A stretch of DNA of 64,000 nt from an uncultured delta proteobacterium (lineage in GTDB: Bacteria > Desulfobacterota > Binatia > Binatales > Binataceae): assembly GCA_963724765.1 (NCBI GenBank), contig CAVRVY010000001.1, positions 960,001 to 1,024,000 of the forward strand, in the 5' to 3' direction. A program made the position numbers and the translations under genes. This document shows positions 15,727 to 34,755 of this stretch, in pieces (within the stretch, counting starts at the first letter, position 1; each line of letters opens with the position of its first letter). Under the pieces are notes generated by a model that worked only from the letters and a program-made list of their open reading frames with translations, was not told the DNA's origin and searched no databases.

Positions 15727-15784
15727 TGGTGCCGAGGGCGGGACTTGAACCCGCATGTGCTTGCGCACGGAGGATTTTGAGTCC
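15727..15784 (-). repeat. att site: displaced 3' half of tRNA-Leu (58-bp direct repeat of 34670-34727)
   Basis: 56/58 identical to the tRNA 3' portion from the anticodon stem to CCA; no D-arm or 5' acceptor strand. Confidence 0.95.
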
Positions 15785-16109
15785 GTCCCCAGTAACCACA
15801 AACCCTCTCTCCACCGCGCACGATCCAACACTATCAGTCACTTTCCTACTTGCTAGTCGAGTCCGAAACGCACCGTCGCCCCGATGGTGCGCGATAGTTC
15901 AGCCACACTTTAGCCACAATTCACAGCGCGAGATCGCCATAGCGCACTGGATGTCACATCCTCTGCGCCACGAAAAAGCCGCGTCATCATTGGGAAATTC
16001 GGCGACTGTGGCTGAAGTGTGGCGCAACTTCGCGACTGTGGATCGGCACGAATCGACGGATCGAAGGGGCAATTTCGCCCCACCTAACCGGGTTCTAGGA
16101 GGGAAGGCG

Positions 16110-16562
16110 ATGCGAACGAGTAACAGGTCCGAGGCGTTCAAGCTGGCACGGCAGCTCGACAGCGACAGCGATCGCGAGGCGCTCGATGACGCGATGCTCG
16201 AACGCCACTGGAATGACTACCGCTGCGATGAGCTACCGGAGCCGTTGGATGCGATCTGGTTGCAGTGCGTCTTGAGCGTGCCCGGCGATGCGGCCGTGCG
16301 GCTGATGCAGAGCGCGGCCTACATCACACCGGCCACCGGCGTTCTCGACGACGCCACGATGGCCACTGTGCTGAAGGCGCGATCGGCGGGCGTCGAGGAG
16401 CTGTTGTTACATGAGCAAGCCGGTTACTACATCGGCTTGGCGCAACGAGAGATGTGCGGCATGGACCTGGCCTCGGGGTTGCGACGGATCGAGCGCTGCA
16501 ACCAGTTTTTGGCGGACTGGACGACGGCGCATCGGGTGAACGTCCCTCTGCGCGCGGTTTGA
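16110..16562 (+). CDS. Hypothetical protein (150 aa)
   Basis: ATG at 16110 with GGAGG RBS; the longer track ORF runs through the att site and is unlikely. Confidence 0.6.
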   Translation: MRTSNRSEAFKLARQLDSDSDREALDDAMLERHWNDYRCDELPEPLDAIWLQCVLSVPGDAAVRLMQSAAYITPATGVLDDATMATVLKARSAGVEELLLHEQAGYYIGLAQREMCGMDLASGLRRIERCNQFLADWTTAHRVNVPLRAV

Positions 16563-16781
16563 TCCAACGGGGACCCCCCGGCGCGATGGAGGCAGCTAGC
16601 ATCGCGCCTGGGGCATCCTGTGCGTCGTGGCGGCCATTGCTGACGTGGAGGGCATCGTAAAACTGCCCGAACTTCCCTGGAGGCGAAATGGGTCCCATCG
16701 CCCAAAATAGCGACAGCACGTTTACTCGCAATCCAAAGGGCGCGGACGGATCGCGCCACAACGCAGGAAGGAGGTTAAGTC

Positions 16782-17162
16782 ATGATCACGCCCGATGAGA
16801 TTCTTCATCGACCCGAGTGTCTCGACGAGGTTGATCCACGCGCCGCGTACGCACTCGCCACGAAATTTCAAAGCGCCGCCTCGGCCTGCTTCCAGCGCGC
16901 GTTCCTGGGCCTTTCATCCATGGCTTCTGCGACTACGGATCGCGCCAACGCGCCCAAGCCCGAAAGCGACAAGCTGATCGCGATCAAGGACGCAGCCGCG
17001 CGGCTCAACAAGCATCGAAGTTGGATGGATCGCCACGGCCGCCGCCTCGGCATCGTGGTGTGCGACCCGACGACTGGGCGAGCTTTGGGATGTTCGACGC
17101 GCGCCATCGAGCGCTTCCTCAGCGTCGATCCCGCAGTCGCTCTCGCCGGGCGGAGGGTTTAG
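16782..17162 (+). CDS. Excisionase-like HTH DNA-binding protein
   Basis: Strong AAGGAGGT RBS; LIAIKDAAARLNKHRSWM resembles an HTH_17/MerR-type winged helix. Confidence 0.55.
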   Translation: MITPDEILHRPECLDEVDPRAAYALATKFQSAASACFQRAFLGLSSMASATTDRANAPKPESDKLIAIKDAAARLNKHRSWMDRHGRRLGIVVCDPTTGRALGCSTRAIERFLSVDPAVALAGRRV

Positions 17163-17165
17163 GCG

Positions 17166-17561
17166 ATGGATGCGGCTGATGAGACGATGTGCTGGTGCGC
17201 ATCCGCGGAAGGGTTACTGCGCGCGTTGATCCCCTACGCGATCCGTTCATTCAACGATGATGCCGACGACGCGCGACGGCTATTCGCCGATCACGGAATC
17301 GTGGACGTGGGCGCGGCGCTACAGCCTTTCCACGACGGCGCGATCATCATCGTAGAAGCGGAGCGCGAAGCGGCACGGCGGATCGTGGCGGGCGTCACGA
17401 CGCAGGCTGATGCCGATAAGCTAATCGTCGAGCTGGGCGCGATCATCGTCACGAGGGCGCTTTTGATGCTGCGCACGTTGATCCAGCGACTCAACGGAAA
17501 CGCGAAGCGCGACGCACATCGCGCCAAAAATGAAGGTACGGAGAATATTCATGCAGAATAA
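17166..17561 (+). CDS. Hypothetical protein
   Basis: Tightly packed co-directional ORF. Confidence 0.5.
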   Translation: MDAADETMCWCASAEGLLRALIPYAIRSFNDDADDARRLFADHGIVDVGAALQPFHDGAIIIVEAEREAARRIVAGVTTQADADKLIVELGAIIVTRALLMLRTLIQRLNGNAKRDAHRAKNEGTENIHAE

Positions 17562-17802
17562 CGAAGCAGTCGAAACCGTCGAGTTGGGCGCGAAGTGCGC
17601 GTGCGGGGCCGTCGCCACCGAGGCCGTGGCGTTTCGGGCAGCGCCGTGCGTTCTATGCCGTAGCTGCTATGAGCGGAAGTCGATGAGGTTTCGCGTCGAT
17701 GAGGAGTTTCTGATCGACGCGCTCACGGTCATCGCGCGCACGCAGGGTTTGAAGCCCATAACGCTTGACGCTCTGCGCGAGATGGTGATCGCCCGAACTT
17801 AG
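17551..17802 (+). CDS. Small Cys-rich hypothetical protein
   Basis: GGAG RBS, CxC...CxxCxxC pattern, overlaps the upstream stop. Confidence 0.5.
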   Translation: MQNNEAVETVELGAKCACGAVATEAVAFRAAPCVLCRSCYERKSMRFRVDEEFLIDALTVIARTQGLKPITLDALREMVIART

Positions 17803-17939
17803 TTGTAGGGAGAGAAGGAGCCCTGCCGCGAATCGGGCGGGAGGTTATCGCGCCAAACAAAAGACCATCGCCGTTGCATCGATTGACTTATTAGGTCAAC
17901 TGGCCCGAACTTCGTTAGTCAGATCGAAAGGAGGTTACG

Positions 17940-18482
17940 ATGCCTTTTTGCGTCAGTTGCGGCGTGGCGAACGTGAGCGGCGCACGATTCTGCAAGGCGT
18001 GCGGGGCGGCGGTAGCATCGCCGTCGCCTCTTCCACCATCGCTCCAGGCGCTTGCGGCACGGATGGAGATGCCGATGCCGTTAACCGTTGCCTGGTTCGA
18101 GCGATTGATGTACACCGCGCTTGGCCTTGGCTGCTTCAATGCGATTCTCGGTTATCCACGCCTATCGGAAGATCCTCGCATTTCGGCGCTTGGCGCGGAC
18201 TTCCCTTTAATCCTCGCTATCGTTTTCCTGTTATTTTCCCTGCCTCTCGCCGTGTGGTGGATCTGGCTGATTGCACGGCGGCGAAAAAACTGGGCGCGGT
18301 GGACGCAGCTTATCCTGCTTATCGTTAGTCTGCCGTTCGTCATGAGTAATGCGGCTACCATGCTTTTGACCACGCCGGTCGTCGGCGCTCTATCCGCGTT
18401 GGCAGGTGCGTTACAAGCCGCTGCGCTTGTTATGGTGTTTTCGGGCGAATCGCGCGACTGGTTCAAAAGGCCGGCAGTTTAG
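17940..18482 (+). CDS. Zinc-ribbon domain membrane protein 1
   Basis: MPFCVSCGVANVSGARFCKACG plus 4 TM segments (RRRKNWARW); AGGAGG RBS. Confidence 0.75.
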   Translation: MPFCVSCGVANVSGARFCKACGAAVASPSPLPPSLQALAARMEMPMPLTVAWFERLMYTALGLGCFNAILGYPRLSEDPRISALGADFPLILAIVFLLFSLPLAVWWIWLIARRRKNWARWTQLILLIVSLPFVMSNAATMLLTTPVVGALSALAGALQAAALVMVFSGESRDWFKRPAV

Positions 18483-18504
18483 ATTCAGGCGGGAGGAAGC
18501 CGCG

Positions 18505-18876
18505 ATGCCCTATTGCACGTATTGCGGTGCAGCGAATGTGAACGGGGCCGTGTTCTGCAAGAGTTGCGGGACAATTACGCAACTGCCCGTTGCGGTACGA
18601 GTTACCGATGATCGTAAAGCACTACGCTGTAAATGTGGGTCTACCCAACTACACGCCGAAAAGCGCGGCTTTAGTTTGTGGTCGGGATTCATCGGCAGCC
18701 GTAAGATCATCGTTACCTGTCTAGCATGCGGACGTAGATATCGACCGGGATACCTACCAAATGACAGATCGGCGATGAGAGAGCCGATGGATCGAAGCGA
18801 TGTTCTTTTCGGCTTGATCATAGTGGGTATGTTTCTATTGACCCTACTTTTTGCAGGTATAATGCACCGCTTTTAG
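18505..18876 (+). CDS. Zinc-ribbon domain membrane protein 2
   Basis: MPYCTYCGAANVNGAVFCKSCG, second Zn motif (CKCGS...TCLACG), C-terminal TM; GGAGG RBS. Confidence 0.75.
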   Translation: MPYCTYCGAANVNGAVFCKSCGTITQLPVAVRVTDDRKALRCKCGSTQLHAEKRGFSLWSGFIGSRKIIVTCLACGRRYRPGYLPNDRSAMREPMDRSDVLFGLIIVGMFLLTLLFAGIMHRF

Positions 18877-18886
18877 TAGAAGGATC

Positions 18887-19207
18887 ATGCCCTACTGTAC
18901 TCATTGCGGTGCTGCTAACGTGGATGATGCACAATTGTGCAAGGATTGTGGCGCGAGCATTGTGCGCTGGAATATCGAAGGGCTAATCAAAAGCGCCGTA
19001 TTCGGCATCGGTCTCGCCGTCGTATTACTCGTGTGCATCAAGGGTGAAGCAGCGCTGATGACGGAAGGTGTAGACTTTCCCCTGCTCCTGCTATTCGTCG
19101 TGTTTGGTTTATTGGGTATGGGAGCGCACATGGAGTTTACACGGTGGGGTCGTAAATGGCGGCTGCTGTCGCGGCTGCGCAATTACCTGATTAGACGACC
19201 GCCTTAA
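18887..19207 (+). CDS. Zinc-ribbon domain membrane protein 3
   Basis: MPYCTHCGAANVDDAQLCKDCG plus 2 TM segments. Confidence 0.7.
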   Translation: MPYCTHCGAANVDDAQLCKDCGASIVRWNIEGLIKSAVFGIGLAVVLLVCIKGEAALMTEGVDFPLLLLFVVFGLLGMGAHMEFTRWGRKWRLLSRLRNYLIRRPP

Positions 19208-19397
19208 AATCCAATTCCACCCGGCTCAATCGCTCCCGGAGCGATGTCGTGATGCGCGTGGAATCGCGACAGTAGCGCAAGTTATTTGCACCCTCGATGT
19301 CGCAATATACGGAAAACTTTTGGCGCGGTATGGCGAAACGTGTTGGTCCGCTTTTGCGGCGCGCTACGCTTAGGGTGAGAGTTTGAAAGGAGGGTAA

Positions 19398-20198
19398 GTG
19401 ATGGAACTGGTCAGGGCGGAAGGAACGAAGGCGATGTGCAGCCATTGCGGCGAAGAGCACGCCGCTATCGAAACCGAGGAGTGCTTCAACGGTTTCCGCA
19501 CCTTAGGCGACACCCACACCCACAATACCGCCGAGGATTCGGCGGCCTGTGATGCCTACCACGCGACCATGCGCGAGCAAATGGCTGCGAGCGAGGATGC
19601 GGATTATGACGCGGCACAAAAGTTGGCGCGCGAAGCCGCCGATGCCGCCCACCACACAGCGACGGAAGCCAGCGAGGGATGGACGCGCTTGGAAGAGATC
19701 GCTTACGACCTCAGCGTGCTCGGCGATTCGTCGCGGATGGAAGGCAAGAATAATCTCGAAACGATCATCATCCAGACCCTCGCGCGGCTCTCAGTCGAAG
19801 TTTATGACGCCCTCAATGTTTCGCGAATCCTGTTCGTCGGCCCCGGCCCAGGACAGCTCGGCGAGGCGCTCCGGCTGAGCCTGGTGGGCGTGGCGAACAA
19901 GCCAAGTGACGACGACGATGATGACGAACCAAGCAAGAGCGTCGTCGCGGGCCTCACTACTATCCGACCAGTACGAATCGAGAGGAACCTGATAGTCCTC
20001 AGCAACGAACTTTGCGGGCAGCCCATCGAAGACGCCATGTGGACGGTCGCCCATGAACTCGCCCATCTATACCTCGGACACGTCGAGCCCGGCAAAAAGC
20101 TCGACGTGCGCGCGCTAGAACCAGATGCCGATCGGCTCGCGGTGAGTTGGGGGTTCGCGCTGCCCGAATGGAGGCGCAAGAACGAAGATGAAGCGTAG
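19398..20198 (+). CDS. HExxH zinc metallopeptidase (ImmA/IrrE-like)
   Basis: TVAHELAHLYLGH followed by LEPDADRLA; AGGAGG RBS; N-terminal CSHC. Confidence 0.7.
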   Translation: MMELVRAEGTKAMCSHCGEEHAAIETEECFNGFRTLGDTHTHNTAEDSAACDAYHATMREQMAASEDADYDAAQKLAREAADAAHHTATEASEGWTRLEEIAYDLSVLGDSSRMEGKNNLETIIIQTLARLSVEVYDALNVSRILFVGPGPGQLGEALRLSLVGVANKPSDDDDDDEPSKSVVAGLTTIRPVRIERNLIVLSNELCGQPIEDAMWTVAHELAHLYLGHVEPGKKLDVRALEPDADRLAVSWGFALPEWRRKNEDEA

Positions 20199-20461
20199 CT
20201 ATACGGCGCCGTCGTGATAAGGGCGGCTGTTAGCTAGCTCGCTCGTGCGAGCGGTTGAGATTAAGAAGCGGCGCTGTGTGCTCGCTCGTGCTCCGCAAAG
20301 CTCCGCGTCGCTCGCTATGGGCCACAGGACGGCATTGATCTACGAAACGGTTCATACACCACCACAAATCGTCAACAACGCGTAACAGTTAGTCATCTAG
20401 TCTCCTCTTGTGCTATGGTGGCGGCCATCTTCTACCGGGGTTTGATAGCTGAGGACTGGAA

Positions 20462-20731
20462 ATGGCGGCTACTGCGATCATGTCAACGGGCGTTGTTAAC
20501 GATCTGGAGTCGTGTCGCCACGACGTGCTGAACTTTCTTCAAATTTTATGCTGGCAAATCGCCTCCGTCGAAGTGAAACGCTGGACGGTCGAGGGGATGC
20601 TGCAAGCAGTTCGCAGGTGGGAATCGGTCGCAAGCGATCTCGAAAATCTTGCCGAGGAGATCGCGCATTTCATTGCCAAAAGTGAAGTCGAAGCGAGAGC
20701 GGTTGTGCTCGTGCGCCGCGAGGCAGAGTGA
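20462..20731 (+). CDS. Hypothetical protein
   Basis: GAGGA RBS, helical 89 aa ORF, upstream TGcTATGGT extended -10-like motif. Confidence 0.5.
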   Translation: MAATAIMSTGVVNDLESCRHDVLNFLQILCWQIASVEVKRWTVEGMLQAVRRWESVASDLENLAEEIAHFIAKSEVEARAVVLVRREAE

Positions 20732-21085: not shown

Positions 21086-21511
21086 CTAATCGCGAATGCC
21101 TGTGCGCGGAAGAAACGCCGCCGGAGTCACGTGGAAGCGTTTCGCCAGTCGGCAAATCTGCCCGACGTTCAACTCGCGCGTGCCGCTCAAGACTTCCGAC
21201 ACGACACTTTGAGCGCCCAGCTCCTCGGCCAGGTCAGCCTGCTTGAGCTTGTGCTCTTCCATCAGGTAGCGCAGCATTTCCGCACCCGATACATCGGGCA
21301 CCTCATAGTGCTCGTCATCATAGGCGCCGATGAGCGCACTCAGAGTCTCGATGAGCCGATAGCGCGGATCATTCGTGTCATCGCCGACTTCATCGAGCAA
21401 CTTGTTAAGCTCCGCGACGGCGGCATCATATTCATGTTCGTCGCGGGGCATCGTATATAATCCAAGAGCCTTCGGATCCTTGATGGTTCGCACAATCGTT
21501 CGCGTTTTCAT
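21086..21511 (-). CDS. higA: HigA antitoxin (HTH Xre)
   Basis: EYDAAV...LIGAYDDEHY...LRYLMEEHKLKQADL...SVVSEVLSGTRELNVGQICRLAKRFHV; GGGAG RBS before ATG 21511. Confidence 0.88.
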   Translation of the reverse strand: MKTRTIVRTIKDPKALGLYTMPRDEHEYDAAVAELNKLLDEVGDDTNDPRYRLIETLSALIGAYDDEHYEVPDVSGAEMLRYLMEEHKLKQADLAEELGAQSVVSEVLSGTRELNVGQICRLAKRFHVTPAAFLPRTGIRD

Positions 21512-21606
21512 GTTTCCGATCTCCCTGATGGCCCCCACCCGCGTCGCCCTCCACCCCCACCCAAAGACCCGCCCGGTGGGCCGTCCGCCGGCGCTGCTGG
21601 CGCGGT

Positions 21607-21906
21607 TCATCTCTTCCAGTCTCCCTTGTCGTACTCCGCATGCGTCAGGATGAAGCGTATGTAGAGCCGCTGCCGGTTGAAATGAATCGCCGCCACGACG
21701 CGATAGTTGTTGCCCCCGATATCGAACACATAGAGCGCGCGGCCTTTCACGTGAACCAAATCGACGCTATTGAAGGTCTGCTTTAGTTCGGGAAAATTCG
21801 TATAGGTCCGGGTGCTAACCGCCTTGTACCACGCATTGAGGGGCGCCGCAGCCCTCTGGTGCTCGTCGCTGAACTCCCTGATCGCCCTTCGCGAAATCAC
21901 CCACAT
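21607..21906 (-). CDS. higB: HigB toxin (RelE superfamily mRNA interferase)
   Basis: MWVISRRAIREF...VFDIGGNNYRVVAAIHF...FILTHAEYDKGDWK. Confidence 0.92.
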   Translation of the reverse strand: MWVISRRAIREFSDEHQRAAAPLNAWYKAVSTRTYTNFPELKQTFNSVDLVHVKGRALYVFDIGGNNYRVVAAIHFNRQRLYIRFILTHAEYDKGDWKR

Positions 21907-21924
21907 CCGCGCCACACCTGTGCA

Positions 21925-21954
21925 ATTCATATCGCAATCTGCGATATGTGTCAA
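21925..21954 (-). promoter_or_regulatory. higBA promoter with palindromic operator
   Basis: TTGACA (21954-21949), 17-bp spacer, TATGAA; perfect CATATCGCA-N3-TGCGATATG palindrome (21928-21948) covers the spacer. Confidence 0.75.
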
Positions 21955-22107
21955 CCCTTCCGACCTGCACGCGCGCGCGCAAGAACACTCACGCGCATCC
22001 ACGGGCATAAGGCGCGGAATCGTGAATAGAACAGCGCATCACGAAACGGCCAGCTATGCCGTGGGCAGCGCGATTTTATAGTTGATCGCGAACGCAACTA
22101 TCCTTAT

Positions 22108-22136
22108 TAGACATGCCTAAACTGTTTTGCTATACT
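22108..22136 (+). promoter_or_regulatory. Sigma70-type promoter for the alpA/rep operon
   Basis: TAGACA-17 bp-TATACT with extended TG. Confidence 0.65.
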
Positions 22137-22155: not shown

Positions 22156-22416
22156 ATGGGACTATTTATGGATCAGAAACACACAGCGAGGCTAGGCGGA
22201 CAAATGAAAATGACTGACAGCATCGGCGACAGGCTTCTAGTGCGCCCAATCGTAGCGGCGGGGCTGCTCAGTGTGAGCCGCGCGATGATCTACCAGATGC
22301 TCAAGGAGGGTCGTTTACCCTCTGTGCGCGTAGGAGATCGGGCGATTCGGATCCCGCTCGCCGCGCTTAAGAAGCTCGCAGGCGCGAGCATCGAGTCGAG
22401 CGACGAAGCCGCCTAG
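22156..22416 (+). CDS. Excisionase/AlpA-like HTH_17 protein
   Basis: AAGLLSVSRAMIYQMLKEGRLPSVRVGDRAIRIP; the true start may be a downstream Met. Confidence 0.85.
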   Translation: MGLFMDQKHTARLGGQMKMTDSIGDRLLVRPIVAAGLLSVSRAMIYQMLKEGRLPSVRVGDRAIRIPLAALKKLAGASIESSDEAA

Positions 22417-22483: not shown

Positions 22484-22915
22484 ATGTCAACGAACATCTC
22501 CAATATAGCATCGCTCCCGATCGGACCAATACCCCGACCCACAAACGAGGCGTCTGCACCTGCCCGACTCGACGACACCGATCTCGACTCCGACGGCGAT
22601 CACAGCGATCTCGTCGATGCCATCATCGCCTTCGAGCGCTGGCGTGCGGAATTTCCTCAAACGAAAATGCGCCTCCGGCCGCAGATCGACTTTTTTTGCG
22701 CCGCGTTGTCTTTGCTCAACCGCTTCGAGGCCGGCGACGACGTGCGTGATCCATCGTTCTTCGACTTCAGCGTCCAACGCTTTCGCAGATACGCACAACC
22801 CGAAGTCGTCCGTGATCTCGAAATGGAGTTGCATGCGTCGCGTAGGCTGATCCGGCGGCTTGCCCGGGTCGTCCGACAAGCGCGTGAAGGCAGAGAATTG
22901 GCGGTGCGATCATGA
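22484..22915 (+). CDS. Hypothetical protein (paralogue of the next gene)
   Basis: ATGA-coupled to 22912; shares a WRxxFPQT motif. Confidence 0.6.
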   Translation: MSTNISNIASLPIGPIPRPTNEASAPARLDDTDLDSDGDHSDLVDAIIAFERWRAEFPQTKMRLRPQIDFFCAALSLLNRFEAGDDVRDPSFFDFSVQRFRRYAQPEVVRDLEMELHASRRLIRRLARVVRQAREGRELAVRS

Positions 22916-23400
22916 GCGCGCCGGGCACGCTGAATACCGCGCGACCATCCGCCATCGCGATCGACAGCGAATGGTTCGAGCGTCTCGGCCGCCGCTATCT
23001 ATATTGGCGTCGTGCATTTCCACAAACCATCGCTCGGGCTAACCGCCAGGTGTCACTCAAAGTCGCCGCGATCAACTTCTCCCGCTTTCGCGATCATGGG
23101 GGACCGAATCTGACTCCGTGTGATCGCGATGGCGCCGATGCCGACGTGCTGGCGCTCTTTGAGCGTGAATTTCTGCGCAGGGCGACGCCCTACGCGATTA
23201 TCGATCTGATCCGTGAGATCGACGCGCTGCACAACGCGGTGCTCGACCTGGACCCCGCTTTCTGCTGGGAGCCGACGGTGCGCAAGTTCGTAAATAAACT
23301 GAAACGCCATCCTGACAGCGAGAGCGACGAGGGCGAGAGCGAGCAGACAGACGCACTAACTGCGGGCGTCGCAAGGAGTATCGAACTGGCACAACCATGA
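22912..23400 (+). CDS. Hypothetical protein (paralogue of the previous gene)
   Basis: ATGA overlaps at both ends. Confidence 0.65.
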   Translation: MSAPGTLNTARPSAIAIDSEWFERLGRRYLYWRRAFPQTIARANRQVSLKVAAINFSRFRDHGGPNLTPCDRDGADADVLALFEREFLRRATPYAIIDLIREIDALHNAVLDLDPAFCWEPTVRKFVNKLKRHPDSESDEGESEQTDALTAGVARSIELAQP

Positions 23401-25676: not shown

Positions 25677-26363
25677 ATGACGCTTCAAGTCGCGCTGATC
25701 GGAAGTGATGGATGGGTGCTTGCCAGCGATAAGCATCTTTTCGGACTCGATCCCACTCGGAGTGGAGGCGTTACCGAATATGATTCCGAGATGATGCCCG
25801 GCCACAGCAAGATCAGGTTTAGAAAAGAAGAGCGGCTAATTTGGGCTTTTTCCGGGAACGTTGACGTTTCCTACCAGGCGGGTATTCGGCTCCAACGGTC
25901 CGCAAAAGGAATCTCGCCCCAAGATCGCGAAGAAGCTTTGAACGAGATTGGGCGGGAAGTAGCAATAGAGTACCCCAGTCAAATGGAAAGTGGGCACGGC
26001 GGTACGCTTTTAGTCATCTTCTGCTCACCGAAAACGGACCTATGGACACTCCGTATTGGCAGCGGGCCGACGCCAAGCAATTCCTTTGCTTTCGGCGGCG
26101 CTGGTAACAGGGCAAAGTTTTTGGTCGAACGCCTCTATGAACGAAGACCTGTAGCCGACCTCAAGTTACTTGCGGTCCTCACGATCATCGAAGGACATCA
26201 CTTCAACCCTTCGACAGTGAACGGACTGGAACTTTGGTACGCAGAGAAGGGCAATATCACGCAAGCCAAGCGCCGCGAACTGGCGGGCCTAAAGAAACAC
26301 GCTGCTCTTTTCAACGCGGAGTTGCGGCAGAGATTGTTCGCCCCTTCACCTAAACGCAACTGA
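25677..26363 (+). CDS. Proteasome-subunit-like Ntn hydrolase (Thr1 type)
   Basis: MTLQVALIGSDGWVLASD matches the proteasome beta/HslV/Anbu N-terminus; later SKI, FSG, GAG. Alternative start at 25545 adds 44 aa. Confidence 0.65.
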   Translation: MTLQVALIGSDGWVLASDKHLFGLDPTRSGGVTEYDSEMMPGHSKIRFRKEERLIWAFSGNVDVSYQAGIRLQRSAKGISPQDREEALNEIGREVAIEYPSQMESGHGGTLLVIFCSPKTDLWTLRIGSGPTPSNSFAFGGAGNRAKFLVERLYERRPVADLKLLAVLTIIEGHHFNPSTVNGLELWYAEKGNITQAKRRELAGLKKHAALFNAELRQRLFAPSPKRN

Positions 26364-26699: not shown

Positions 26700-29012
26700 A
26701 TGAGTGACGGAATCGAAGTACGCATCAGCCCCGCCAGCGGCAAGCGTTTGGCCGAACCCTCGTCAAGCTTCAGCGACCGCTTCACGGGTGCGCAGCAGCG
26801 ATTCGCCGCGCCTGGTCTTGGCCAGCGCTCCGAGATAGCCGTCGAGAAAAAAATCGCCGAGTCGCAGATCGCACTCGTCGCCGAGTTGAAAAGGCTGCGC
26901 ACGGCGATGCGCACCGCCGCGCCGGGCACCGAGGCGCGGCGGATCCTCGAAGCGCGCCGCAACGATCTCTACGCGCAACAAGCGCGCAGCATGAGCGTGG
27001 CATTCGCCGCCGATCCCCGCTGGGCATCGCACGAAGCCGAAGTAGCGAAGGCGCTCCCTCGCCGTGGCGCCGCCATCGCGCGCGGGATGGGACGCTCAGC
27101 ACTCAGCACGGGAATCGGCGCCGGTGCGCTTGGCGTCGGCCTCGCATCGGCCGCATGGAGCGGGCAAAGCGGCCTCGGTGTCGCGCTGATCGGCGCCGAC
27201 CTGGGTATGCGTGCGGGCGTCCCTCTGGCGCGCGGCGCCTGGAGTCTCGGCCGGAGCGCGATCGGCGCCGCGTTTGGCGCCGGAGCCGGTGAAGCTGGTG
27301 GGGCCGTGGCTGGTGCCGCTGGTGAAGCCGTCACGGCCGGGGCAGTCGCGGAGACTGCCGGCGGAGTCCTCGCCGCGCTCGGCGGGTGGCCCGTAATCGT
27401 GACCGCCATCACCGCCGCCCTCGGTGTTGGCGCTTACGAGTACGTCAAAAATCGCGGCGCGGTGAATCGCACCCTAAGCGGCGCAGCGGGCGATGTGATG
27501 GGACTGCCCAAAGACGCCGTTTCTCTCGCACTGGCGCGCGGCTACGGCGCGACCGAGGCGACGCGTCAGGCTACCGCCTTCAGATTCGCGCGCTCTTTCC
27601 AAGATAGCGGCATGTCGATGGTTGGCGCCTCGACGGGAGGGCGCTGGTCGGCGTTGGGCCTCACCGCTTCTGAATCGACCGCGATGCTCGGATCCTCACG
27701 CGAGCTTGCGGGCAGCGACATTCTCAGCAACACGAAAGCCTACCGCTCGCTACGGATGGGCGTCTACGCGGGATTGACTAATGAGCAGAACGTCGCCGCC
27801 ACGGGCGGTTTCGCGCGTCTCGGCGCTGACTCCGAGGCGTCGATCAAAATCATAACCGAGGGCGTCTTGCGCGCTAACGAGCGCGGTTTGCAAGGCGAAG
27901 TTCTGAAAGCGCAGCTCGACTATCTGCGCACCCAAAGCCAGAGCACCGTCATTCAGAATCCGACTGCCGCCGTCGCCGGAGTCAGCGCTCTCGCGTCGAT
28001 GTTCCAGGCTTCGCGCATTCCCTCGCTACGCGGCGCGGGTGCGATCGGTGCGATCCGGTCGATCGGCGCCGCCTTCGATTCGTCATCGCTGTTCGACGAA
28101 AGCGCACTCGGCAAATCAGTCACCATGATGGGCCAAGCGCGCCTGCTCGCCGCTTCCTCATCCGCCAGGCACTTCACCGGCTACAGCGATGCGGAAGTCG
28201 CGAAGATGAGCCCCGCCCAGCGCATGACCATCGGCTTGCGAGTGATGGATCGCGGCTTCACCAACACCGGACCCGATCTCAGTCTCTTCCTGAAGAATGC
28301 GATCGCGCCGACGCTCCAGACCGCGAAAACCAATCCGTTGTTGCTCGATGCGGTCGAAAAGGCGTGGGGACTCGCGCGCGGCCAGGCAACCGATCGCATG
28401 CTCACCAACAAGATGCTGCCCGAGGCGATGACCGGCAACTACACGGCCTTCGACGCCGACCTCGCGAAGGTGAAGCTCCGCGCCAAAGGAATGATCGCGC
28501 CCGGCGCCGCCGCTGAAGCGCGCCTCTCCCACACCGAAGCGCGCACCGGCGAGAAAACGATGTCCACCTACATCAAGAGTTTGGATCTCGTCGAAAAAAA
28601 GGCGCTCGACGTGATGAACACGTACCTTGACGGCGGCACCGCACCCGATGGCACGCCACTCCCCGGCGGTGCGGCGGGCGCGCGCTTACGTAATACGCTC
28701 AAGGGCACCGGAGCGATGTCCTCGCTGCCGTCTCCGGCCCCGACTCCTACTGCATCGCGCTATGGTGCGTCGGCCGCCGGGGCTCCGATAAGCGGACCAG
28801 GTGCGCTTAGCGGCATAGCGGACGCGATCATCTGGGGCGTTAGAGCGATGATCGCCGATCTCGACAAGCTAGTGGCCTATGCCGAGCATCCGCCGGCGCC
28901 CGGTGCGCCCGTCGCTTACGCGCCCACGCCGCCGCTCCCGCCGTCGCATCCCGCAGTTCACGCATCGCCGGCCCACGGCGCGGTTGTCCCGCCCGGCCAC
29001 ACGCATCGCTAA
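26700..29012 (+). CDS. Tape-measure-like protein (770 aa)
   Basis: AAGGAG RBS; Ala/Gly-rich helical protein with an N-terminal coiled region and long hydrophobic Gly-rich segment; directly precedes a hub-like gene. Confidence 0.6.
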   Translation: MSDGIEVRISPASGKRLAEPSSSFSDRFTGAQQRFAAPGLGQRSEIAVEKKIAESQIALVAELKRLRTAMRTAAPGTEARRILEARRNDLYAQQARSMSVAFAADPRWASHEAEVAKALPRRGAAIARGMGRSALSTGIGAGALGVGLASAAWSGQSGLGVALIGADLGMRAGVPLARGAWSLGRSAIGAAFGAGAGEAGGAVAGAAGEAVTAGAVAETAGGVLAALGGWPVIVTAITAALGVGAYEYVKNRGAVNRTLSGAAGDVMGLPKDAVSLALARGYGATEATRQATAFRFARSFQDSGMSMVGASTGGRWSALGLTASESTAMLGSSRELAGSDILSNTKAYRSLRMGVYAGLTNEQNVAATGGFARLGADSEASIKIITEGVLRANERGLQGEVLKAQLDYLRTQSQSTVIQNPTAAVAGVSALASMFQASRIPSLRGAGAIGAIRSIGAAFDSSSLFDESALGKSVTMMGQARLLAASSSARHFTGYSDAEVAKMSPAQRMTIGLRVMDRGFTNTGPDLSLFLKNAIAPTLQTAKTNPLLLDAVEKAWGLARGQATDRMLTNKMLPEAMTGNYTAFDADLAKVKLRAKGMIAPGAAAEARLSHTEARTGEKTMSTYIKSLDLVEKKALDVMNTYLDGGTAPDGTPLPGGAAGARLRNTLKGTGAMSSLPSPAPTPTASRYGASAAGAPISGPGALSGIADAIIWGVRAMIADLDKLVAYAEHPPAPGAPVAYAPTPPLPPSHPAVHASPAHGAVVPPGHTHR

Positions 29013-29050: not shown

Positions 29051-30739
29051 ATGGCACTCCAAGTAAAATCTCGCGCCCCGCGCTTCCGTGTCCAAATTCA
29101 TGCGAAGGGCACCCAGGGCGCGATGGTCAGCTACGACACCGCTTCGTCCGGCGACACCGCGCTTCTCGCCTCGATCGTGTCGATCCAGACCTCGCGCCGC
29201 ATGGGCCAAGCCGGTACGTTCGCCCTCACGCTGCTTCCGCGCCGCGATGCCCTTCATCGATGGCAGGACGTGATCTCACCGATGGATTACGTCGAGATCG
29301 ATCTCTCGCCGTCGGGCGCTGTCGGCGCCGGTTCGACAAGCACATCCGCGAAATTTCGCGGCTTTATCGATAGCGTCGAAATGGTCTGGACTCTGGAAGA
29401 CGGCCGCCCGTTCCCGGCGATCCGCATCTCCGGACGCGATTACACGAAACTTCTGATCGACATGCAGCTCTATTTACTGGGCAACGTGCCGCCGTCGCTC
29501 CAAGTCTTATTGACGTGGTTGCAAGGCATCAGCGCGCTCGATCCGTCGACTACTACTACATCGACTGAGATTAGCAAAGCCTCCGCTTTGGGCGGTTCGG
29601 GCTCGCCCGCCAACCTGCGCCCCGATCAAGTGATCAACGGCCTTTTCACGGACTGGCTACGCCCGTTTTCGTCGGCGATCGAATCGGCCCTCACGATCAG
29701 TACGCCGATTCGACTCGATGCCTCCTACGCGCAACTCGACGCCACGCAACTCGGACTCGCCGCCATTCGCCCCGCGATCCTCGTCGACAATTTCGATCTC
29801 CTCCGTACCGCCGTGTGGACGGTGATGGGCGAATACTCACACGCGCCGTGGTACGAACTCTATGTCGAGGACTACAGCGACGCGCCCTATCTAGTGTTGC
29901 GGCCGGCACCGTGGCGAGATATCAACGGCGCGTGGGTTCAACCGACTGCGTGGAGCAGCATCTCGCCCTCGTCGTCATCGCCATCGCCACGCGCGCCGCG
30001 CTTCATCGCCGTCGATGCGCATGAGATCGTCGCCCTCGCCTTGGGCCGCAGCGACGCCGGCTCTGACGATAGCTCCGACAGTGCCGCCTCGGGTGGAGCT
30101 GGTGGATCGGGCGGTACGGCGTCGAGCGGCGGCGGCGGACAGGTCAACAATTTCTTTTTGACCTACCCGGCGCCATTCGAGGCACTCACCACCGCCGCGC
30201 GCAATCTGGGCTCGCCGTTATTGACCGGTAACAACCCTCTGATCTGCGGCTCACCCTCACTCGCGTCGTCGGGCGCGTTCGGCGCTTCCGACTGGCACGA
30301 GTTTGGCTGGCGCCCGATGGAGCGTTGGAGCGCCTACAGCGACTTCCCCGGTAACGATCCTACGACCGCCTCTATAGGCAGCGAGTTGAATCGCCGGTTG
30401 GGTGCAGCCTTCAGCTTCGGCGAATACCTCGAATCGGGCATCATCACGATCGTCCGCGATCCTGCATCCGCACAGTACGATCCCATTCACCTGGGCGACT
30501 ACATCAGCCTGACGGGCGCGCTCGATGAGTTTGGCATCGAGTGGGCGCAAGGAACTTTCGCCTATGTTGAATCAGTGTCGCACGATTTCCGCATCCCCAC
30601 CGGCACGGGCGATGGCAGCTATACCATGATGCTGGGCGTGACGCGCGGCGAAGGCCATTTAGATCGCTATCCTAACCTGCGCAACAACTCGATCGTGACG
30701 CCCTTGAAGAACGCCGCGCTCACCACGACGACGCCTTAA
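29051..30739 (+). CDS. Baseplate hub-like tail protein (T4 gp27/Mu gp44-like)
   Basis: SIQTSRRMGQAGTFALTL, ISPMDYVEI, FRGFIDSV, ISGRDYTKLL, PWYELYVED, C-terminal SGIITI...IHLGDYI...YVESVSHDF...MLGVTRG. Confidence 0.7.
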   Translation: MALQVKSRAPRFRVQIHAKGTQGAMVSYDTASSGDTALLASIVSIQTSRRMGQAGTFALTLLPRRDALHRWQDVISPMDYVEIDLSPSGAVGAGSTSTSAKFRGFIDSVEMVWTLEDGRPFPAIRISGRDYTKLLIDMQLYLLGNVPPSLQVLLTWLQGISALDPSTTTTSTEISKASALGGSGSPANLRPDQVINGLFTDWLRPFSSAIESALTISTPIRLDASYAQLDATQLGLAAIRPAILVDNFDLLRTAVWTVMGEYSHAPWYELYVEDYSDAPYLVLRPAPWRDINGAWVQPTAWSSISPSSSSPSPRAPRFIAVDAHEIVALALGRSDAGSDDSSDSAASGGAGGSGGTASSGGGGQVNNFFLTYPAPFEALTTAARNLGSPLLTGNNPLICGSPSLASSGAFGASDWHEFGWRPMERWSAYSDFPGNDPTTASIGSELNRRLGAAFSFGEYLESGIITIVRDPASAQYDPIHLGDYISLTGALDEFGIEWAQGTFAYVESVSHDFRIPTGTGDGSYTMMLGVTRGEGHLDRYPNLRNNSIVTPLKNAALTTTTP

Positions 30740-30781: not shown

Positions 30782-30825
30782 AAAAGAAAAGGGGCCAGCC
30801 GCGCTCACTCTACGCGGCTGGCCCC
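30782..30825 (-). terminator. Rho-independent terminator
   Basis: 13-bp stem ggggccagccgcg/cgcggctggcccc with a T-tract on the minus strand, between convergent genes. Confidence 0.8.
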
Positions 30826-30885
30826 CGAGTCGGGCAGCTGCGATCGGACGCAACGATCGCGGGCCGCCCTCTATGACCGTTCTAG

Positions 30886-31722
30886 TTAATTGCCGTACAG
30901 CTCGTCAGCGCTAACCGCGAAAGGGTTTCCGGACGGCAACGCTGGTAGGCCGTATCGCCGTCTCACCGCTTCGGGCACCGCCCCGAGCGCACGCTCAACG
31001 TTGCGCCGCGAGCTGGCGAAAGTCGGATTGACGCTCTCGTACACCAACAGCACGCTGGGATCGAGATCCTCGTTGCATACTGCGTCCTGCAACTTCGACT
31101 TCAGCATCTCGTACTGCCGCGTGCCTTTGATGAGTGCCATCAAATCAAAGCCGCCGCGACGACGCATGCCGAAGCTTTTCCCGGTGACGTACTCATCGCG
31201 ATCCAGGCCGCGTCTCACGCTGCGACGCGCCAACTTGTCGCCGCCGATCATCGCGCGGCCCTCTTCGTCGGGATCGTCCTCATCCTCGACGTAATCCTGA
31301 CCGTCGATCGGCGTGATCCGGCTGTCGCCACGCGCGCCAGGAAAGCGGATGCGGCTGGGGCGCCCGCTCACGAGCATCATGTGGCTTTCGTCGTCAAGCT
31401 CATCGCCCAGAGCGAACAGTTCGTCGTCGCTGAGCGATTGAATACCACGCCACGCGTCGCGCATGTCCTTGCGGCGTGCTCCTTGTGCGCGTCGATCGGA
31501 GTCGTCGATCGACTCGTCGTCGTAGTCTTTTGCGTCGGACAGCTCGGCAATCGTTTGGGCGCGGCGGCGCTTCGATTTCACGAGGTCTTCGAGATCTCGG
31601 GCAGCTTCGGCGAAGGCTGAATTGTAGTTCATAAGTGCGTCCTTGTGTGCCTCATTTTCGGGGATGGTCATGCGGAAGCGTCGGCCGGTGAGAAAGTCTG
31701 TCACTAAGCGCGCGATCCGCAT
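30886..31722 (-). CDS. Acidic hypothetical protein (possible head scaffold/internal protein)
   Basis: 278 aa, Asp/Glu/Arg-rich, has its own promoter and terminator; function not recognised. Confidence 0.65.
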   Translation of the reverse strand: MRIARLVTDFLTGRRFRMTIPENEAHKDALMNYNSAFAEAARDLEDLVKSKRRRAQTIAELSDAKDYDDESIDDSDRRAQGARRKDMRDAWRGIQSLSDDELFALGDELDDESHMMLVSGRPSRIRFPGARGDSRITPIDGQDYVEDEDDPDEEGRAMIGGDKLARRSVRRGLDRDEYVTGKSFGMRRRGGFDLMALIKGTRQYEMLKSKLQDAVCNEDLDPSVLLVYESVNPTFASSRRNVERALGAVPEAVRRRYGLPALPSGNPFAVSADELYGN

Positions 31723-31787: not shown

Positions 31788-32207
31788 ATGGGCAATCCTA
31801 ACAACCTCATCCCGTTCCAGTTTAAAAAGGGCCAGTCGGGCAACCCCAACGGCCGCCCTAGCGACCGCGAGGCCGTCGCCCATGCCCTAAAATCGACCCG
31901 CAATGGCCTCGAACTCGTCGAGACGCTTATCGACCTGATGCGCAACGCCAAGGCGGAAAAGACGCGCCTGGCCGCGACCTGTGAATTGTGGGATCGAGTT
32001 TATGGCCGCGTCCCGGCGTCGGATCGGCCCTCGCTACTGGGCGAGTTGGCGCGGGGCGCAAGCGAGATACACTTCGCGGCGTCGTTCGGCCCGCGTCGCG
32101 CACCGGGCGACGAGGCTAAGGACGATACGGTTGTAGAAGTTGTCGAAGCCGACTCCCATCGCGTCGATATGGACGACGCCGAGACGCCCGTCGAGACGCC
32201 CGAGTAG
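31788..32207 (+). CDS. DUF5681-domain protein, small terminase-like
   Basis: N-terminal FKKGQSGNPNGRP, then RLAATCELWDRVYGR helical segment and acidic tail. Confidence 0.65.
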   Translation: MGNPNNLIPFQFKKGQSGNPNGRPSDREAVAHALKSTRNGLELVETLIDLMRNAKAEKTRLAATCELWDRVYGRVPASDRPSLLGELARGASEIHFAASFGPRRAPGDEAKDDTVVEVVEADSHRVDMDDAETPVETPE

Positions 32208-32676
32208 CCCGGAAAGCGTCGAAACCCCCGAATAAACCTGCTGGGCTCACGACGCCACTAAAAATTTCTCGCCCTTGTATCGCGAATAAAACAATGTGTC
32301 GCGCCAACTGTGGAGCTGCGTCGCCGAAAAAAGAGTTTGAGATCGAGTGGTCGAAAAGTGGCGCGCCCGAGGCCCAAATACATGAACAACAAGCACAACG
32401 CACCGACGACGCCCTCGACGACGACGCCTTGGTATCGCTATCGCGATCAACGAATGGCGCATACCCGAGAGCTGCGACAGCTCGCGATCCACTCCCAGGG
32501 GGCGCCGCGATGCGGCCGATGTGAGATCGTGCTCGAATTCCGACCCGCGGGCGAACCATGCCGCATCGCGCAGTGCCCGTTGTCGCGACCCGCGGATCGC
32601 GACACGCTGCGCATGCCCTAATCGCGTCTACCGCTACCCCCTTTGTCCGCCGAAAAGCCGTGAGACTATTATCTCA

Positions 32677-33063
32677 GTGCTACCCACCGCACATCGCCAC
32701 GCGAACGGCGCGTCTCCGGTCCTGAGCCTCGATGCGCCGGTGTCCTCGCTCGACGCGCTCGACTCGACGACGCTCTCGGCCCTCACGCCCGCACAGCTCG
32801 CCAGCCTGATCGCGCGCCTAGCCGCGCTTCAGTCGAGCATCGCATCCGCGATGTTCCAGCACGCGATCATTCCCCACAACGCCAAGGACACGGCACCTGC
32901 CCGCTGGCTCGACGCCGACGAAGCCGCCGCGATCCTCCACAAGCCGCGCCGATGGCTATTCGACAACGCGAAGCGCTACGCCTGGATCAAACGCGTAAGT
33001 CGCAAGTCGCTCCTCGTCGATGAGGCGGCGATGCTGCGCTGGATCGCCTCGCGCACTCGCTGA
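32677..33063 (+). CDS. Excisionase-like HTH DNA-binding protein (start uncertain)
   Basis: C-terminal WLDADEAAAILHKPRRWLF...RVSRKSLLVDEAAMLRWI, just upstream of the integrase. Confidence 0.65.
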   Translation: MLPTAHRHANGASPVLSLDAPVSSLDALDSTTLSALTPAQLASLIARLAALQSSIASAMFQHAIIPHNAKDTAPARWLDADEAAAILHKPRRWLFDNAKRYAWIKRVSRKSLLVDEAAMLRWIASRTR

Positions 33064-33132
33064 CGCTCGCCCTCGACGGCCGCCTTGTGGATAACCGATC
33101 AAAATAAACCTGCGCTTCGCTCTCTGTAGTGT

Positions 33133-33160
33133 TTGACATAATTATGCTTTTATGTATAAT
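33133..33160 (+). promoter_or_regulatory. Consensus sigma70 promoter with palindrome
   Basis: TTGACA-16 bp-TATAAT; CATAATTATG palindrome at 33137-33146. Confidence 0.8.
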
Positions 33161-33166
33161 TAGATC

Positions 33167-33340
33167 ATGAAGCGCAGGGGAGACGCGAAAGAGCCCACCA
33201 TGAAGATCACGACCATCCGCATGCCCGACCCGCTGCTCAAGCGCGTCAAGATCCGTGCCGTCGAAGAGGGTACGACCTTCCAGGCGCTTTTAATCGAAGC
33301 GCTTGAAGCGTATCTGAAGGGCCACAAGAAGCAGGGCTGA
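33167..33340 (+). CDS. Ribbon-helix-helix regulator (57 aa, below the ORF-track cutoff)
   Basis: Manual translation MKRRGDAKEPTMKITTIRMPDPLLKRVKIRAVEEGTTFQALLIEALEAYLKGHKKQG fits the CopG/Arc pattern. Confidence 0.8.
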   Translation: MKRRGDAKEPTMKITTIRMPDPLLKRVKIRAVEEGTTFQALLIEALEAYLKGHKKQG

Positions 33341-33387
33341 CGCGACGCGACGCACCGCGCCCAAATCGCACCAGGAGGAACCGGGCG

Positions 33388-34518
33388 ATGACCAACAACG
33401 AAACCGCGAACGCACCCGAAGCGAAAGTCGAGACGAAGGCCCACGGGCGCGAAAAGGGCAGGGCGCGCGGACTCGGCTCGCTTTTCAAGCGCGGCAACAC
33501 CTTCTGGATCTGCTACTACCGCGACGGGCGCCGCTACCGCGAATCCGCCGACTCCGACAAGGAAACCATCGCCGCGAAGCTCTTGAAGCGCCGCCTGGCC
33601 GACGCCGCTTCAGGCAAACCGATCGGCCCGGAAGTCGAAAAGACCACGCTTTCGGACCTCCAGGGGATCCTGCTCGATCACTACCGCATGAACGGCAAGC
33701 GTTCGACCCGACGCGTCGCGCAAGCCCTAGATCACCTTCTCGCCCACTTCGATCCCTCCTCACGCGCCAACGCCATCACGGGTGATCGCGTCAACCGTTA
33801 TGTCGTCGAGCGTCAGGAACAGGGCGCCGCCAACGCGACGATCAACCGCGAACTCGCCGCACTCAAGCGCGCCTTCCATCTCGCCCATCGCGTAGGCCGT
33901 GTCGCGACCATCCCGTTCATCACCATGCTTGCCGAAGACAACGCGCGCCAAGGCTTCGCCGAGGCGGCCGACTTCGACGCGATCCATGCCCTATTGCCCG
34001 AGCACCTCCAAGACCCGATCCGCTTCCTCTACCTCTCGGGCTGGCGCGTCGGTGAGATGAAGACCCTCGAATGGCGCGACGTGTATACGGACGCCATCCG
34101 CCTGCGCTCCGAGAACAGCAAAAACGGTAAGGGCCGCGAGCTTCCCCTGTTGGGTGAGCTTGCCGCGATCCTCGATCGCGCCCGCGATACGCGCCGTCTC
34201 GACTGTCCATACGTCTTCCATCGCGACGGCAAACAGCTTCGCGACTTCCGCGGCGCCTGGGCATCGGCGTGCGCGAAGGCGGGTCATGCCCAGCTCCTCG
34301 TTCATGATCTCCGCCGCAGCGCGATTCGCAACATGACCCGCGCCGGCGTGGGCGAGCGGATTGCGATGGCGATTTCGGGCCACAAGACGCGCTCGACGTT
34401 CGACCGTTACAACATCACGACCGGTGACGACCTGCGCCATGCGGTCGAGGCGGTTCAAGACTTCCTCTCCAACCAGCCCGCCGAATCGCGCGTCACCGCC
34501 CTGCGAGAGGCGAAGTAG
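33388..34518 (+). CDS. int: Tyrosine recombinase / phage integrase
   Basis: GSLFKRG arm domain, ATINRELAALKRAF, SGWRVGE, SKNG, HDLRR, SGHKT, RY; AGGAGG RBS; adjacent to the tRNA 3' end. Confidence 0.95.
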   Translation: MTNNETANAPEAKVETKAHGREKGRARGLGSLFKRGNTFWICYYRDGRRYRESADSDKETIAAKLLKRRLADAASGKPIGPEVEKTTLSDLQGILLDHYRMNGKRSTRRVAQALDHLLAHFDPSSRANAITGDRVNRYVVERQEQGAANATINRELAALKRAFHLAHRVGRVATIPFITMLAEDNARQGFAEAADFDAIHALLPEHLQDPIRFLYLSGWRVGEMKTLEWRDVYTDAIRLRSENSKNGKGRELPLLGELAAILDRARDTRRLDCPYVFHRDGKQLRDFRGAWASACAKAGHAQLLVHDLRRSAIRNMTRAGVGERIAMAISGHKTRSTFDRYNITTGDDLRHAVEAVQDFLSNQPAESRVTALREAK

Positions 34519-34669
34519 AGCATGGACGCCGCCTCGCGCACGGAAACCGTCTGTCTGACCGCAAGGTTAGCCACATTTCGTCCACAATTTCGTCGAAATT
34601 GGCCCTCCGCACGCCCGTGCCCGAGGTGCGCTCATTCGCGTAATCCTTTGAATATATTGAGATTTCGAG

Positions 34670-34755
34670 TGGTGCCGAGGGCGGGACTTGAACCCGCATG
34701 TGCTTACCCACGGAGGATTTTGAGTCCTCTGCGTCTGCCATTTCGCCACCTCGGC
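34670..34755 (-). tRNA. tRNA-Leu(CAA)
   Basis: GCCGAGG acceptor stem, TGGC...TGGCAGACGC D-arm, GAGGA-CTCAAAA-TCCTC anticodon arm, long variable arm, GGTTCAAGTCC, encoded CCA. Confidence 0.97.

Follow-up and report, generated by a model that had tools for sequence, protein, structure and literature searches.

A tRNA-integrated, PICI-like element with a tail hub homolog and a probable tape measure: a possible phage satellite without head genes in an uncultured Binataceae bacterium

The DNA analyzed here, referred to as the window, is a stretch of 64,000 nucleotides from the genome of an uncultured delta proteobacterium of the family Binataceae (assembly GCA_963724765.1, contig CAVRVY010000001.1, positions 960,001 to 1,024,000 of the forward strand). 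Integrated at positions 15727-34727 is a 19-kb element, which we call element A. Element A possesses an integrase, regulators, a replication module, and a candidate packaging gene in an arrangement resembling that seen in phage-inducible chromosomal islands (PICIs) of gram-negative bacteria. Alongside these genes, it encodes a homolog of a phage tail hub and a probable tape measure, and searches of its open reading frames (ORFs) revealed no head genes. Two further elements with the same backbone, B and C, reside elsewhere in the genome. We discuss whether element A may be a phage satellite that contributes its own components to the tails of the particles in which it would travel. Coordinates are positions in the window unless one of the contigs C1 to C4 is named.

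Boundaries and principal genes of element A

Element A contains 25 ORFs, 22 of which lie on the plus strand. All were scanned against Pfam and PHROGs, and 18 of them also against NCBIfam; a cutoff of E<=0.01 was applied for head and lysis families. Its principal features are as follows.

15727-15784, no strand: attL, a duplicate of the tRNA-Leu 3' part (58-nucleotide repeat)
22156-22416, plus strand: AlpA/HTH_17 regulator (PF12728, 2e-7)
23397-24611, plus strand: Rep, a RepA/DnaB-like AAA_25 ATPase (PF13481, 8.8e-24; PHROG primase/helicase families, 2e-19 to 1e-15)
24579-24784, no strand: replication origin directly past the rep stop codon, with six GAAGRGGGCCA iterons, some in each orientation, and an AT-rich stretch among them
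26700-29012, plus strand: tape-measure-like protein, 770 amino acids, encoded by a core gene of the family just ahead of the hub gene
29051-30739, plus strand: baseplate-hub-like protein, 562 amino acids (phrog_1015, 1.6e-14 over residues 3-160)
31788-32207, plus strand: DUF5681 protein, candidate small terminase (PF18932, 3.1e-7, residues 11-36 only)
32521-33063, plus strand: Xis-like ORF with no Pfam match of its own; its homologs in elements B and C carry HTH_17
33388-34518, plus strand: tyrosine integrase (PF00589, 2.6e-16; phrog_1, 1.2e-46)
34670-34755, minus strand: tRNA-Leu(caa) (ARAGORN; Rfam tRNA, 58.4 bits), whose 3' part, 34670-34727, is attR

The boundaries of element A are the two copies of a direct repeat (15727-15784 and 34670-34727; 56 of 58 bases identical, 97%), and the tRNA that supplies attR is the sole tRNA of the window; the Rfam scan returned nothing beyond it. 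One metagenome contig, spanning 15618-16017, reads across attL in the integrated state. Excision junctions did not appear in the contigs of four low-depth DNA runs; the joints in those runs have sides of just 20-21 letters and were not counted as excision products.

Rep and the iteron origin constitute a replication module. Specifically, the motif GAAGRGGGCCA occurs six times in the window, always inside 24579-24784, versus 0.03 occurrences expected, and none of 100 shuffles reaches six. No primase domain was found in element A. Regarding the regulators, the ORF at 22156-22416 matches the AlpA family itself (PF05930) at 0.0021, below the cutoff, and the real start of the Xis-like ORF may be internal.

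The preliminary description of this locus, made from the letters alone, had proposed a complete-looking 19-kb element with both att sites, an intact integrase, Xis/AlpA-like genes, a Rep helicase with an iteron origin, and toxin-antitoxin genes (HigBA, 21086-22008), mostly on one strand; all of these features are borne out. It had also reported that capsid, portal, large terminase, tube, sheath, and lysis genes are missing. Indeed, Pfam and PHROGs reveal none of these families among the 25 ORFs, with one marginal exception on the lysis side: the ORF at the left end matches an endolysin PHROG at 0.0045. Pfam at relaxed thresholds added nothing. Because Pfam matches nothing in 12 of the 25 ORFs, the absence of head genes is an absence by sequence search only. 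A portal or a large terminase is ruled out by size as well, since just four ORFs exceed 300 amino acids (Rep, the integrase, and the 770- and 562-amino-acid proteins).

The family and its tail and packaging proteins

Element A belongs to a family. Three elements in this one genome possess the same backbone.

Element A, window 15727-34727: at tRNA-Leu(caa), with the hub gene
Element B, C1:94190-110573: perfect 51-nucleotide att repeats at tRNA-Leu(tag)
Element C, C3, about 686.7-706.2 kb: frameshifts interrupt the tape-measure-like gene

Common to all three, in this order, are the left-end ORF, an HTH_17 gene, the AAA_25 rep gene, two small ORFs, a zinc-ribbon ORF, the tape-measure-like gene, a charged ORF of about 280 codons on the opposite strand, the DUF5681 gene, a second HTH_17 gene, and the integrase gene. 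Iterons follow rep at the same place in each element, with a different sequence in each. No head-gene match occurs in A, B, or C. Because the three elements share both order and content, a simple deletion from a prophage is argued against. The tape-measure-like ORF remains open in A and B (770 and 724 amino acids) at 38% identity. The hub gene, by contrast with this core gene, is an accessory gene in a variable slot: it is present in A only (one of the three copies), the slot measures about 0.45 kb in B, and in C it holds a Gp49/HigB-like toxin pair. Element B also carries a second tyrosine integrase gene near its left end (452 amino acids, C1:95963-97321), and because of it B may be a composite of two elements.

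Relatives beyond this genome are few. A search of 164 further genomes from the bacterial family turned up the tape-measure-like gene in one (G152) and the hub gene in another (G153); a sample of 400 genomes from the class yielded no tape-measure-like gene. Many of these genomes are incomplete, so such rarity is not proof of absence. The G152 relative is smaller, consisting only of a split tape-measure-like gene, Xis, an integrase, and tRNA-Ser. G153 harbors a small element with a DUF5681 gene, a RepA-like ORF, a 512-amino-acid ORF of no known family, and then a second, diverged hub, 42% identical to the first.

Assignment of the 562-amino-acid protein as a phage tail protein and hub homolog is solid. 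The PHROG that it matches is annotated "tail protein with lysin activity," and when the hub was compared by tblastn with 50,697 phage records, three of them matched. A profile built from eight hub homologs aligns with gp018 of Yersinia phage fHe-Yen8-01 over 411 columns (hhalign probability 97.8%, E 1e-12). In that phage, gp018 is annotated as particle-associated and is encoded between a 929-amino-acid particle-associated protein, in the tape-measure position, and the spike. Similarly, a distant hub relative in an IMG/VR contig adjoins a 1104-amino-acid tape measure within a contractile-tail module. We accept the hub reading because homology and gene position agree. The tail modules of element A and fHe-Yen8-01 are alike in that a large tape measure, or tape-measure-like protein, precedes a hub of 536-562 amino acids, and the hubs are homologous over nearly their full length. 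They differ in that the phage module continues with the spike, tube initiator, sheath initiator, and Baseplate_J, while element A stops after the hub. The hub ORF has no match to PF05954 (Phage_GPD), and a PDB sequence search with it returned nothing. Scans of viral contigs revealed one distant hub relative; those of genome contigs revealed none.

The 770-amino-acid protein is probably a tape measure, judging from its composition, its position, and its relatives. It is rich in alanine (19%) and glycine (12%), with a charged N-terminus, a hydrophobic alanine- and glycine-rich segment at residues 126-262, and a proline-rich tail. Its position directly upstream of the hub gene is the one that the tape measure occupies in both phage loci, that of fHe-Yen8-01 and that of the IMG/VR contig. 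Searched exhaustively with a profile, 1.84 billion protein representatives yielded 25 family proteins. Three of the 10 family matches that were scanned carry a C-terminal SLT domain, and in two of these three the central region matches tail-lysin PHROGs, namely 13572 and 1047. The family profile, built from 14 sequences, aligns with the SLT-bearing group through the central domain (hhalign probability 98.75%, E 1.5e-16, 186 columns). When one SLT-bearing protein, P0029, was compared with phages by tblastn, its SLT domain alone matched. If the 770-amino-acid protein is a tape measure, its length would correspond to a tail of about 115-123 nm at 1.5-1.6 Å per residue, against about 75 nm for the 487-amino-acid tape measure of the resident Mu-like phage. 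The tape-measure-like ORF of element A has no match in the 50,697 phage records and none in the viral or genome contigs. A scan of metagenome contigs gave one fragment of 1246 bases. Among metagenome relatives, contigs of 11475, 54329, and 20896 bases occur in both the tape-measure and the hub match lists, and from these matching sizes alone, relatives of the two proteins appear to share the three contigs.

The third protein of interest is the DUF5681 protein. A DUF5681 ORF lies directly upstream of a Terminase_6N gene in Acetobacter phage phiAX1, as it does at two of the four loci in this genome that encode such a terminase. That the element A protein acts as a small terminase is a reasonable but thin prediction from this gene neighborhood. 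Thus, of what the preliminary description had said about virion-like genes, the hub stands, through its homology to gp018, and the tape measure has indirect support and no direct match; for the DUF5681 gene, the family match holds, and the small-terminase role is weaker than was claimed.

Remaining genes and other phage loci

The other features of element A, with those that accompany the principal genes, are listed here.

16110-16562, plus strand: conserved left-end ORF, about 150 amino acids, with 58-63% identical homologs at the same end of elements B and C
16782-20731, plus strand: accessory region, comprising three unknown ORFs, three zinc-ribbon membrane ORFs, a SprT/M78-like ORF, and an 89-amino-acid ORF
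17940-18482, 18406-18876, and 18887-19207, plus strand: the three zinc-ribbon membrane ORFs (Zn_Ribbon_1, 2.4e-6 to 3.6e-5)
19398-20198, plus strand: SprT/M78-like ORF (Pfam SprT-like, 7e-4)
21086-21610, minus strand: HigA antitoxin (HTH_3, 6.5e-8)
21607-22008, minus strand: HigB toxin (PF09907, 1.7e-28)
22108-22136, plus strand: promoter-like site ahead of alpA, 10 of 12 hexamer matches, extended TG
22484-23400, plus strand: two unknown ORFs, the second (22912-23400) 69% identical to C1:101203-101685 of element B
24796-25530, plus strand: two small ORFs (24796-25200 and 25204-25530) directly upstream of the tape-measure-like gene, common to elements A, B, and C
25545-26363, plus strand: 272-amino-acid ORF of unknown function, specific to element A, with no paralog in the genome
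26368-26667, plus strand: small zinc-ribbon ORF, 47% and 44% identical to ORFs at the same position in B and C
30790-30826, minus strand: hairpin terminator separating the hub ORF from the acidic ORF that converges on it, with a T run and a 15-bp stem that has 12 GC pairs
30886-31722, minus strand: highly charged 278-amino-acid ORF of unknown function, present in A, B, C, and G153 at 46-48% identity, divergent from the DUF5681 gene
33133-33160, plus strand: perfect sigma-70-type promoter match ahead of the integrase gene, 12 of 12 hexamer positions

The promoter matches and the hairpin fit the gene layout, and the strong hairpin after the hub gene closes the rightward operon. The left-end ORF has weak matches alone: beyond the endolysin PHROG, PG_binding_1 is matched at 0.029. 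The three zinc-ribbon ORFs are consecutive paralogs, each with the zinc-ribbon motif at its start followed by hydrophobic segments, and they are possible membrane-anchored cargo. PADLOC matches in the accessory region are weak (Lit, 9.9e-4; AbiEi, 1.2e-4). HigBA matches PD-Lambda-2_A at 1.3e-25 and PD-Lambda-2_B at 2.3e-18, the latter over profile positions 8-113 of 402.

Searches with the two small ORFs upstream of the tape-measure-like gene gave no match in Pfam, PHROGs, or PDB; they are candidate tail assembly chaperones. The 272-amino-acid ORF that follows them returned nothing from Pfam, PHROGs, NCBIfam, PADLOC, or PDB. Its N-terminal region looks, by eye, like the start of a proteasome beta or HslV-type Ntn hydrolase; family and PDB searches gave that likeness no support. 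The charged ORF (D+E 19%, K+R 16.5%) likewise has no family, phage, or PDB match, and its composition is like that of scaffolding proteins, an observation we offer as a thought only.

Other mobile DNA surrounds element A and is scattered through the genome. Left of attL, positions 1-15726 of the window have a G+C content of 0.54-0.64, lowered as in element A, a hint that islands are arrayed in tandem at tRNA-Leu(caa). An extra copy of the tRNA-Leu att core lies 43 kb upstream of element A on the same contig (C1:932578-932624), accompanied by an integrase and Xis-like gene pair (C1:944674-946044). A further core copy, at C4:1722312-1722362, adjoins integrase fragments.

The genome also contains a Mu-like myophage module (C2:232467-249050) that encodes a gpT head protein, Mu Gp36 and Gp37, sheath, tube, a 487-amino-acid tape measure, GpU, a GPD hub, spike, Baseplate_J, and fibers. 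In addition, four isolated cassettes place a DNA methylase gene, in two instances with ParB_N, beside a Terminase_6N large terminase gene.

C3:34233-36817: methylase-large terminase cassette
C3:122544-126084: methylase-large terminase cassette
C3:141416-144741: methylase-large terminase cassette
C4:1664002-1667169: methylase-large terminase cassette

Two of the four have a strong DUF5681 ORF between methylase and terminase. All are flanked by transposase or serine recombinase genes, with no adjoining structural genes. PF05065, PF04860, and PF03354 have no match in the genome.

Known satellites, rival explanations, and implications

The closest published parallel is provided by the cholera-associated PICI-like elements (PLEs). 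According to the PLE study (bioRxiv 10.1101/2025.01.29.635557; Nature 2026, PMC12987554), genes for a tape measure and a tail assembly chaperone are common to all PLEs, a baseplate hub gene occurs in some of them, and PLEs build chimeric tails. PLEs are described there as islands of about 18 kb without capsid genes, with their own origin, that use the helper's heads and remaining tail parts. PLE11 virions contain tape measure and hub proteins of PLE origin and exclude their counterparts from phage ICP1, and deletion of the PLE tape measure lowers transduction by 96-99.9% (10.1101/2025.01.29.635557; PMC12987554). A figure legend mentions putative tmp genes in PLE-like elements and in some capsid-forming PICIs (cf-PICIs; PMC12987554). 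The authors' experiments concern one Vibrio family, and they propose that manipulating how tails are assembled may be widespread among satellites. The preliminary description had presented element A as a candidate new class of satellite, and its account of known systems had PLEs redirecting helper capsids and left out their tail genes; with the PLE precedent published, the claim of a new class is dropped. A head-less satellite with its own tape measure and hub is already in print, and what sets element A apart is its chassis and its host.

Analogous to the PLEs, element A encodes part of a tail pathway and no recognized head genes, its hub being assigned by homology and its tape measure predicted. 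The distribution also matches: the tape measure is in all PLE variants and the hub in some, just as the tape-measure-like gene is core and the hub optional among A, B, and C. The differences lie in the chassis. The PLE integrase is a large serine recombinase, whereas that of element A is a tyrosine recombinase (PF00589) acting at a tRNA gene. Element A, unlike the PLEs, has an AAA_25 Rep, an AlpA regulator, a DUF5681 gene resembling those for small terminases, and an environmental host; no chaperone or capsid scaffold is recognized in it. The PLEs were compared by published description, and the phage search with the hub and tape-measure-like ORFs revealed no similarity to ICP1.

Element A has in common with gram-negative PICIs an integrase with att sites, an AlpA-type regulator upstream of an operon that runs rightward, rep followed by an iteron origin, a candidate small-terminase gene, accessory or defense cargo, and the presence of several copies per genome. 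It differs in its 19-kb size with tape-measure-like and hub genes, and no primase domain or capsid-redirection gene is recognized in it. To our knowledge, classical PICIs lack tail genes. A PICI is expected to have no virion structural genes, and element A has a hub homolog and a tape-measure-like gene; it thus departs from PICIs and from PLEs in one defining feature each. P4-like satellites are characterized by Psu, Delta, Sid, and alpha primase, none of which has a Pfam or PHROG match among the 25 ORFs. Mycobacterial EPIPs carry a tape measure, have altered tail lengths, and also carry head genes (PMC12822802). Element A resembles the EPIPs in its tape-measure-like gene, and it resembles those cf-PICIs for which putative tmp genes are reported (PMC12987554). 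Both of these groups, however, encode capsid and connector proteins, and none were found in element A; the set that defines a cf-PICI (its own capsid, portal, protease, connectors, and terminase) does not appear among the 25 ORFs.

The reading we favor, at roughly an even chance, is that element A is a tRNA-integrated, PICI-like phage satellite that has no head and pursues a PLE-like tail strategy, providing its own tape measure and, here, also a hub. The idea is that induction by a helper phage would cause element A to excise and to replicate from its own origin. The DUF5681 protein would direct the helper's large terminase to element A, which would be packaged in helper capsids. By analogy with the PLEs, the tape measure of element A, plus the hub in this copy, would replace those of the helper, and the outcome would be satellite particles with chimeric contractile tails. 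Here, we infer both helper dependence and the arrival of the two tail proteins in particles. The family is best read as one that works like a PLE and is built like a PICI, that is, as an independent lineage using the PLE strategy. A stronger proposition is that it constitutes a distinct, undescribed family of tail-remodeling satellites, with an origin independent of the PLEs, a swappable hub slot, and a private tape-measure lineage that has no detectable phage relative and is maintained by the satellite rather than recently captured from a helper. We put this forward tentatively, as doubtful on present evidence. The satellite reading offered in the preliminary description is strengthened by the discovery of three head-less elements of the same architecture; the hub, present in one of the three copies, is not part of the family core.

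Several observations weigh against a satellite with its own tail proteins. No helper phage was identified, and a hidden Markov model search of all ORFs of the genome revealed no relatives of the hub or tape-measure-like protein outside the sister elements. The Mu-like phage on C2 was considered as the helper and rejected: its hub and tape measure are unrelated to those of element A (hhalign probabilities of 0.3% and 0.5%, respectively). The four large terminase loci look like remnants. No tail assembly chaperone was recognized among the ORFs of element A by Pfam, PHROGs, or PDB, nor was a capsid-size factor recognized in the element. The 770-amino-acid ORF has no direct Pfam, PHROG, NCBIfam, PDB, or phage match; hhalign comparisons with three genuine tape measures were negative, the one from fHe-Yen8-01 showing no detectable similarity; and a single member of the 14 in the family profile matches a tape measure PHROG (phrog_1272), marginally, at 0.016. 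An AlphaFold2 model of the hub from an eight-sequence alignment reached a pLDDT of 34, which makes it unusable, and gave no confident fold. The DUF5681 protein aligns with proteins in the small-terminase position at an hhalign probability of 93% through a 23-column N-terminal motif only, and fHe-Yen8-01, the myophage with the hub homolog, has no DUF5681 match. Finally, some copies may be decaying: frameshifts interrupt the tape-measure-like gene in element C and in G152.

These same observations invite other explanations. The tail proteins could be weapons rather than parts: a satellite or defense island could deploy the tape-measure-like protein and the hub as dominant-negative decoys that poison phage tail assembly, the hub being interchangeable cargo. 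The hub slot does vary, empty in B and filled by the toxin pair in C, and HigBA of element A matches PD-Lambda-2. Satellites are, moreover, described as carrying tail-assembly inhibitors, specifically the Tai systems (PMC11364771) and Rta of PLE11 (10.1101/2025.01.29.635557). Tai and Rta, however, are small nonstructural proteins, and in the PLEs the homologous arrangement serves virion building. Furthermore, the tape-measure-like gene is core, lies within the long AlpA-Rep operon, and is full length in A and B; it therefore fits a role in the element's own transfer, and we consider decoys unlikely. Equally unlikely, in our estimation, is that the elements are decayed prophages, their tail genes relics beside an integrase, and that any movement occurs by integrase-mediated excision only. 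Decay is certainly in evidence, since two of the five tape-measure-like genes seen are split (C and G152), the genome is rich in phage debris (the four cassettes of methylase, small terminase, and large terminase genes, integrase fragments, and extra att copies), and excision junctions were not seen. Yet independent decay would not yield three compact elements that agree in gene order and retain intact att sites, with a perfect 51-nucleotide repeat in B, as well as private Rep-iteron origins. ORFs of 2.2-2.3 kb are still open at 38% identity, and the 25 ORFs of element A and the 45 of the sister elements include no flanking remains of head genes or further tail genes.

Less probable still is an integrative element that has nothing to do with phage particles and is, for instance, mobilized by conjugation; the 770-amino-acid protein, membrane-associated and rich in alanine and glycine, would then do something else, and the hub would be cargo acquired by chance. 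That protein does lack a direct match to tape measure families, and its own family is very rare (the 25 proteins noted above). Family scans of the ORFs of element A and the sister elements, however, show no match to relaxase, coupling protein, or type IV secretion families; DUF5681 proteins are encoded beside large terminases in this genome and in phiAX1; and the hub is a bona fide tail homolog that recurs in a second element with Rep and DUF5681 genes, that of G153.

If the reading of element A as a satellite with PLE-like tails is correct, then a soil or sediment bacterium harbors, on an unrelated chassis with the tape measure as core and the hub as option, a case of convergence on the PLE strategy. 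Three paralogous copies in one genome provide a natural comparison of which genes are essential. For annotators, the family carries a caution: a small island with tape measure and hub genes that lacks those for a head is not necessarily a broken prophage.

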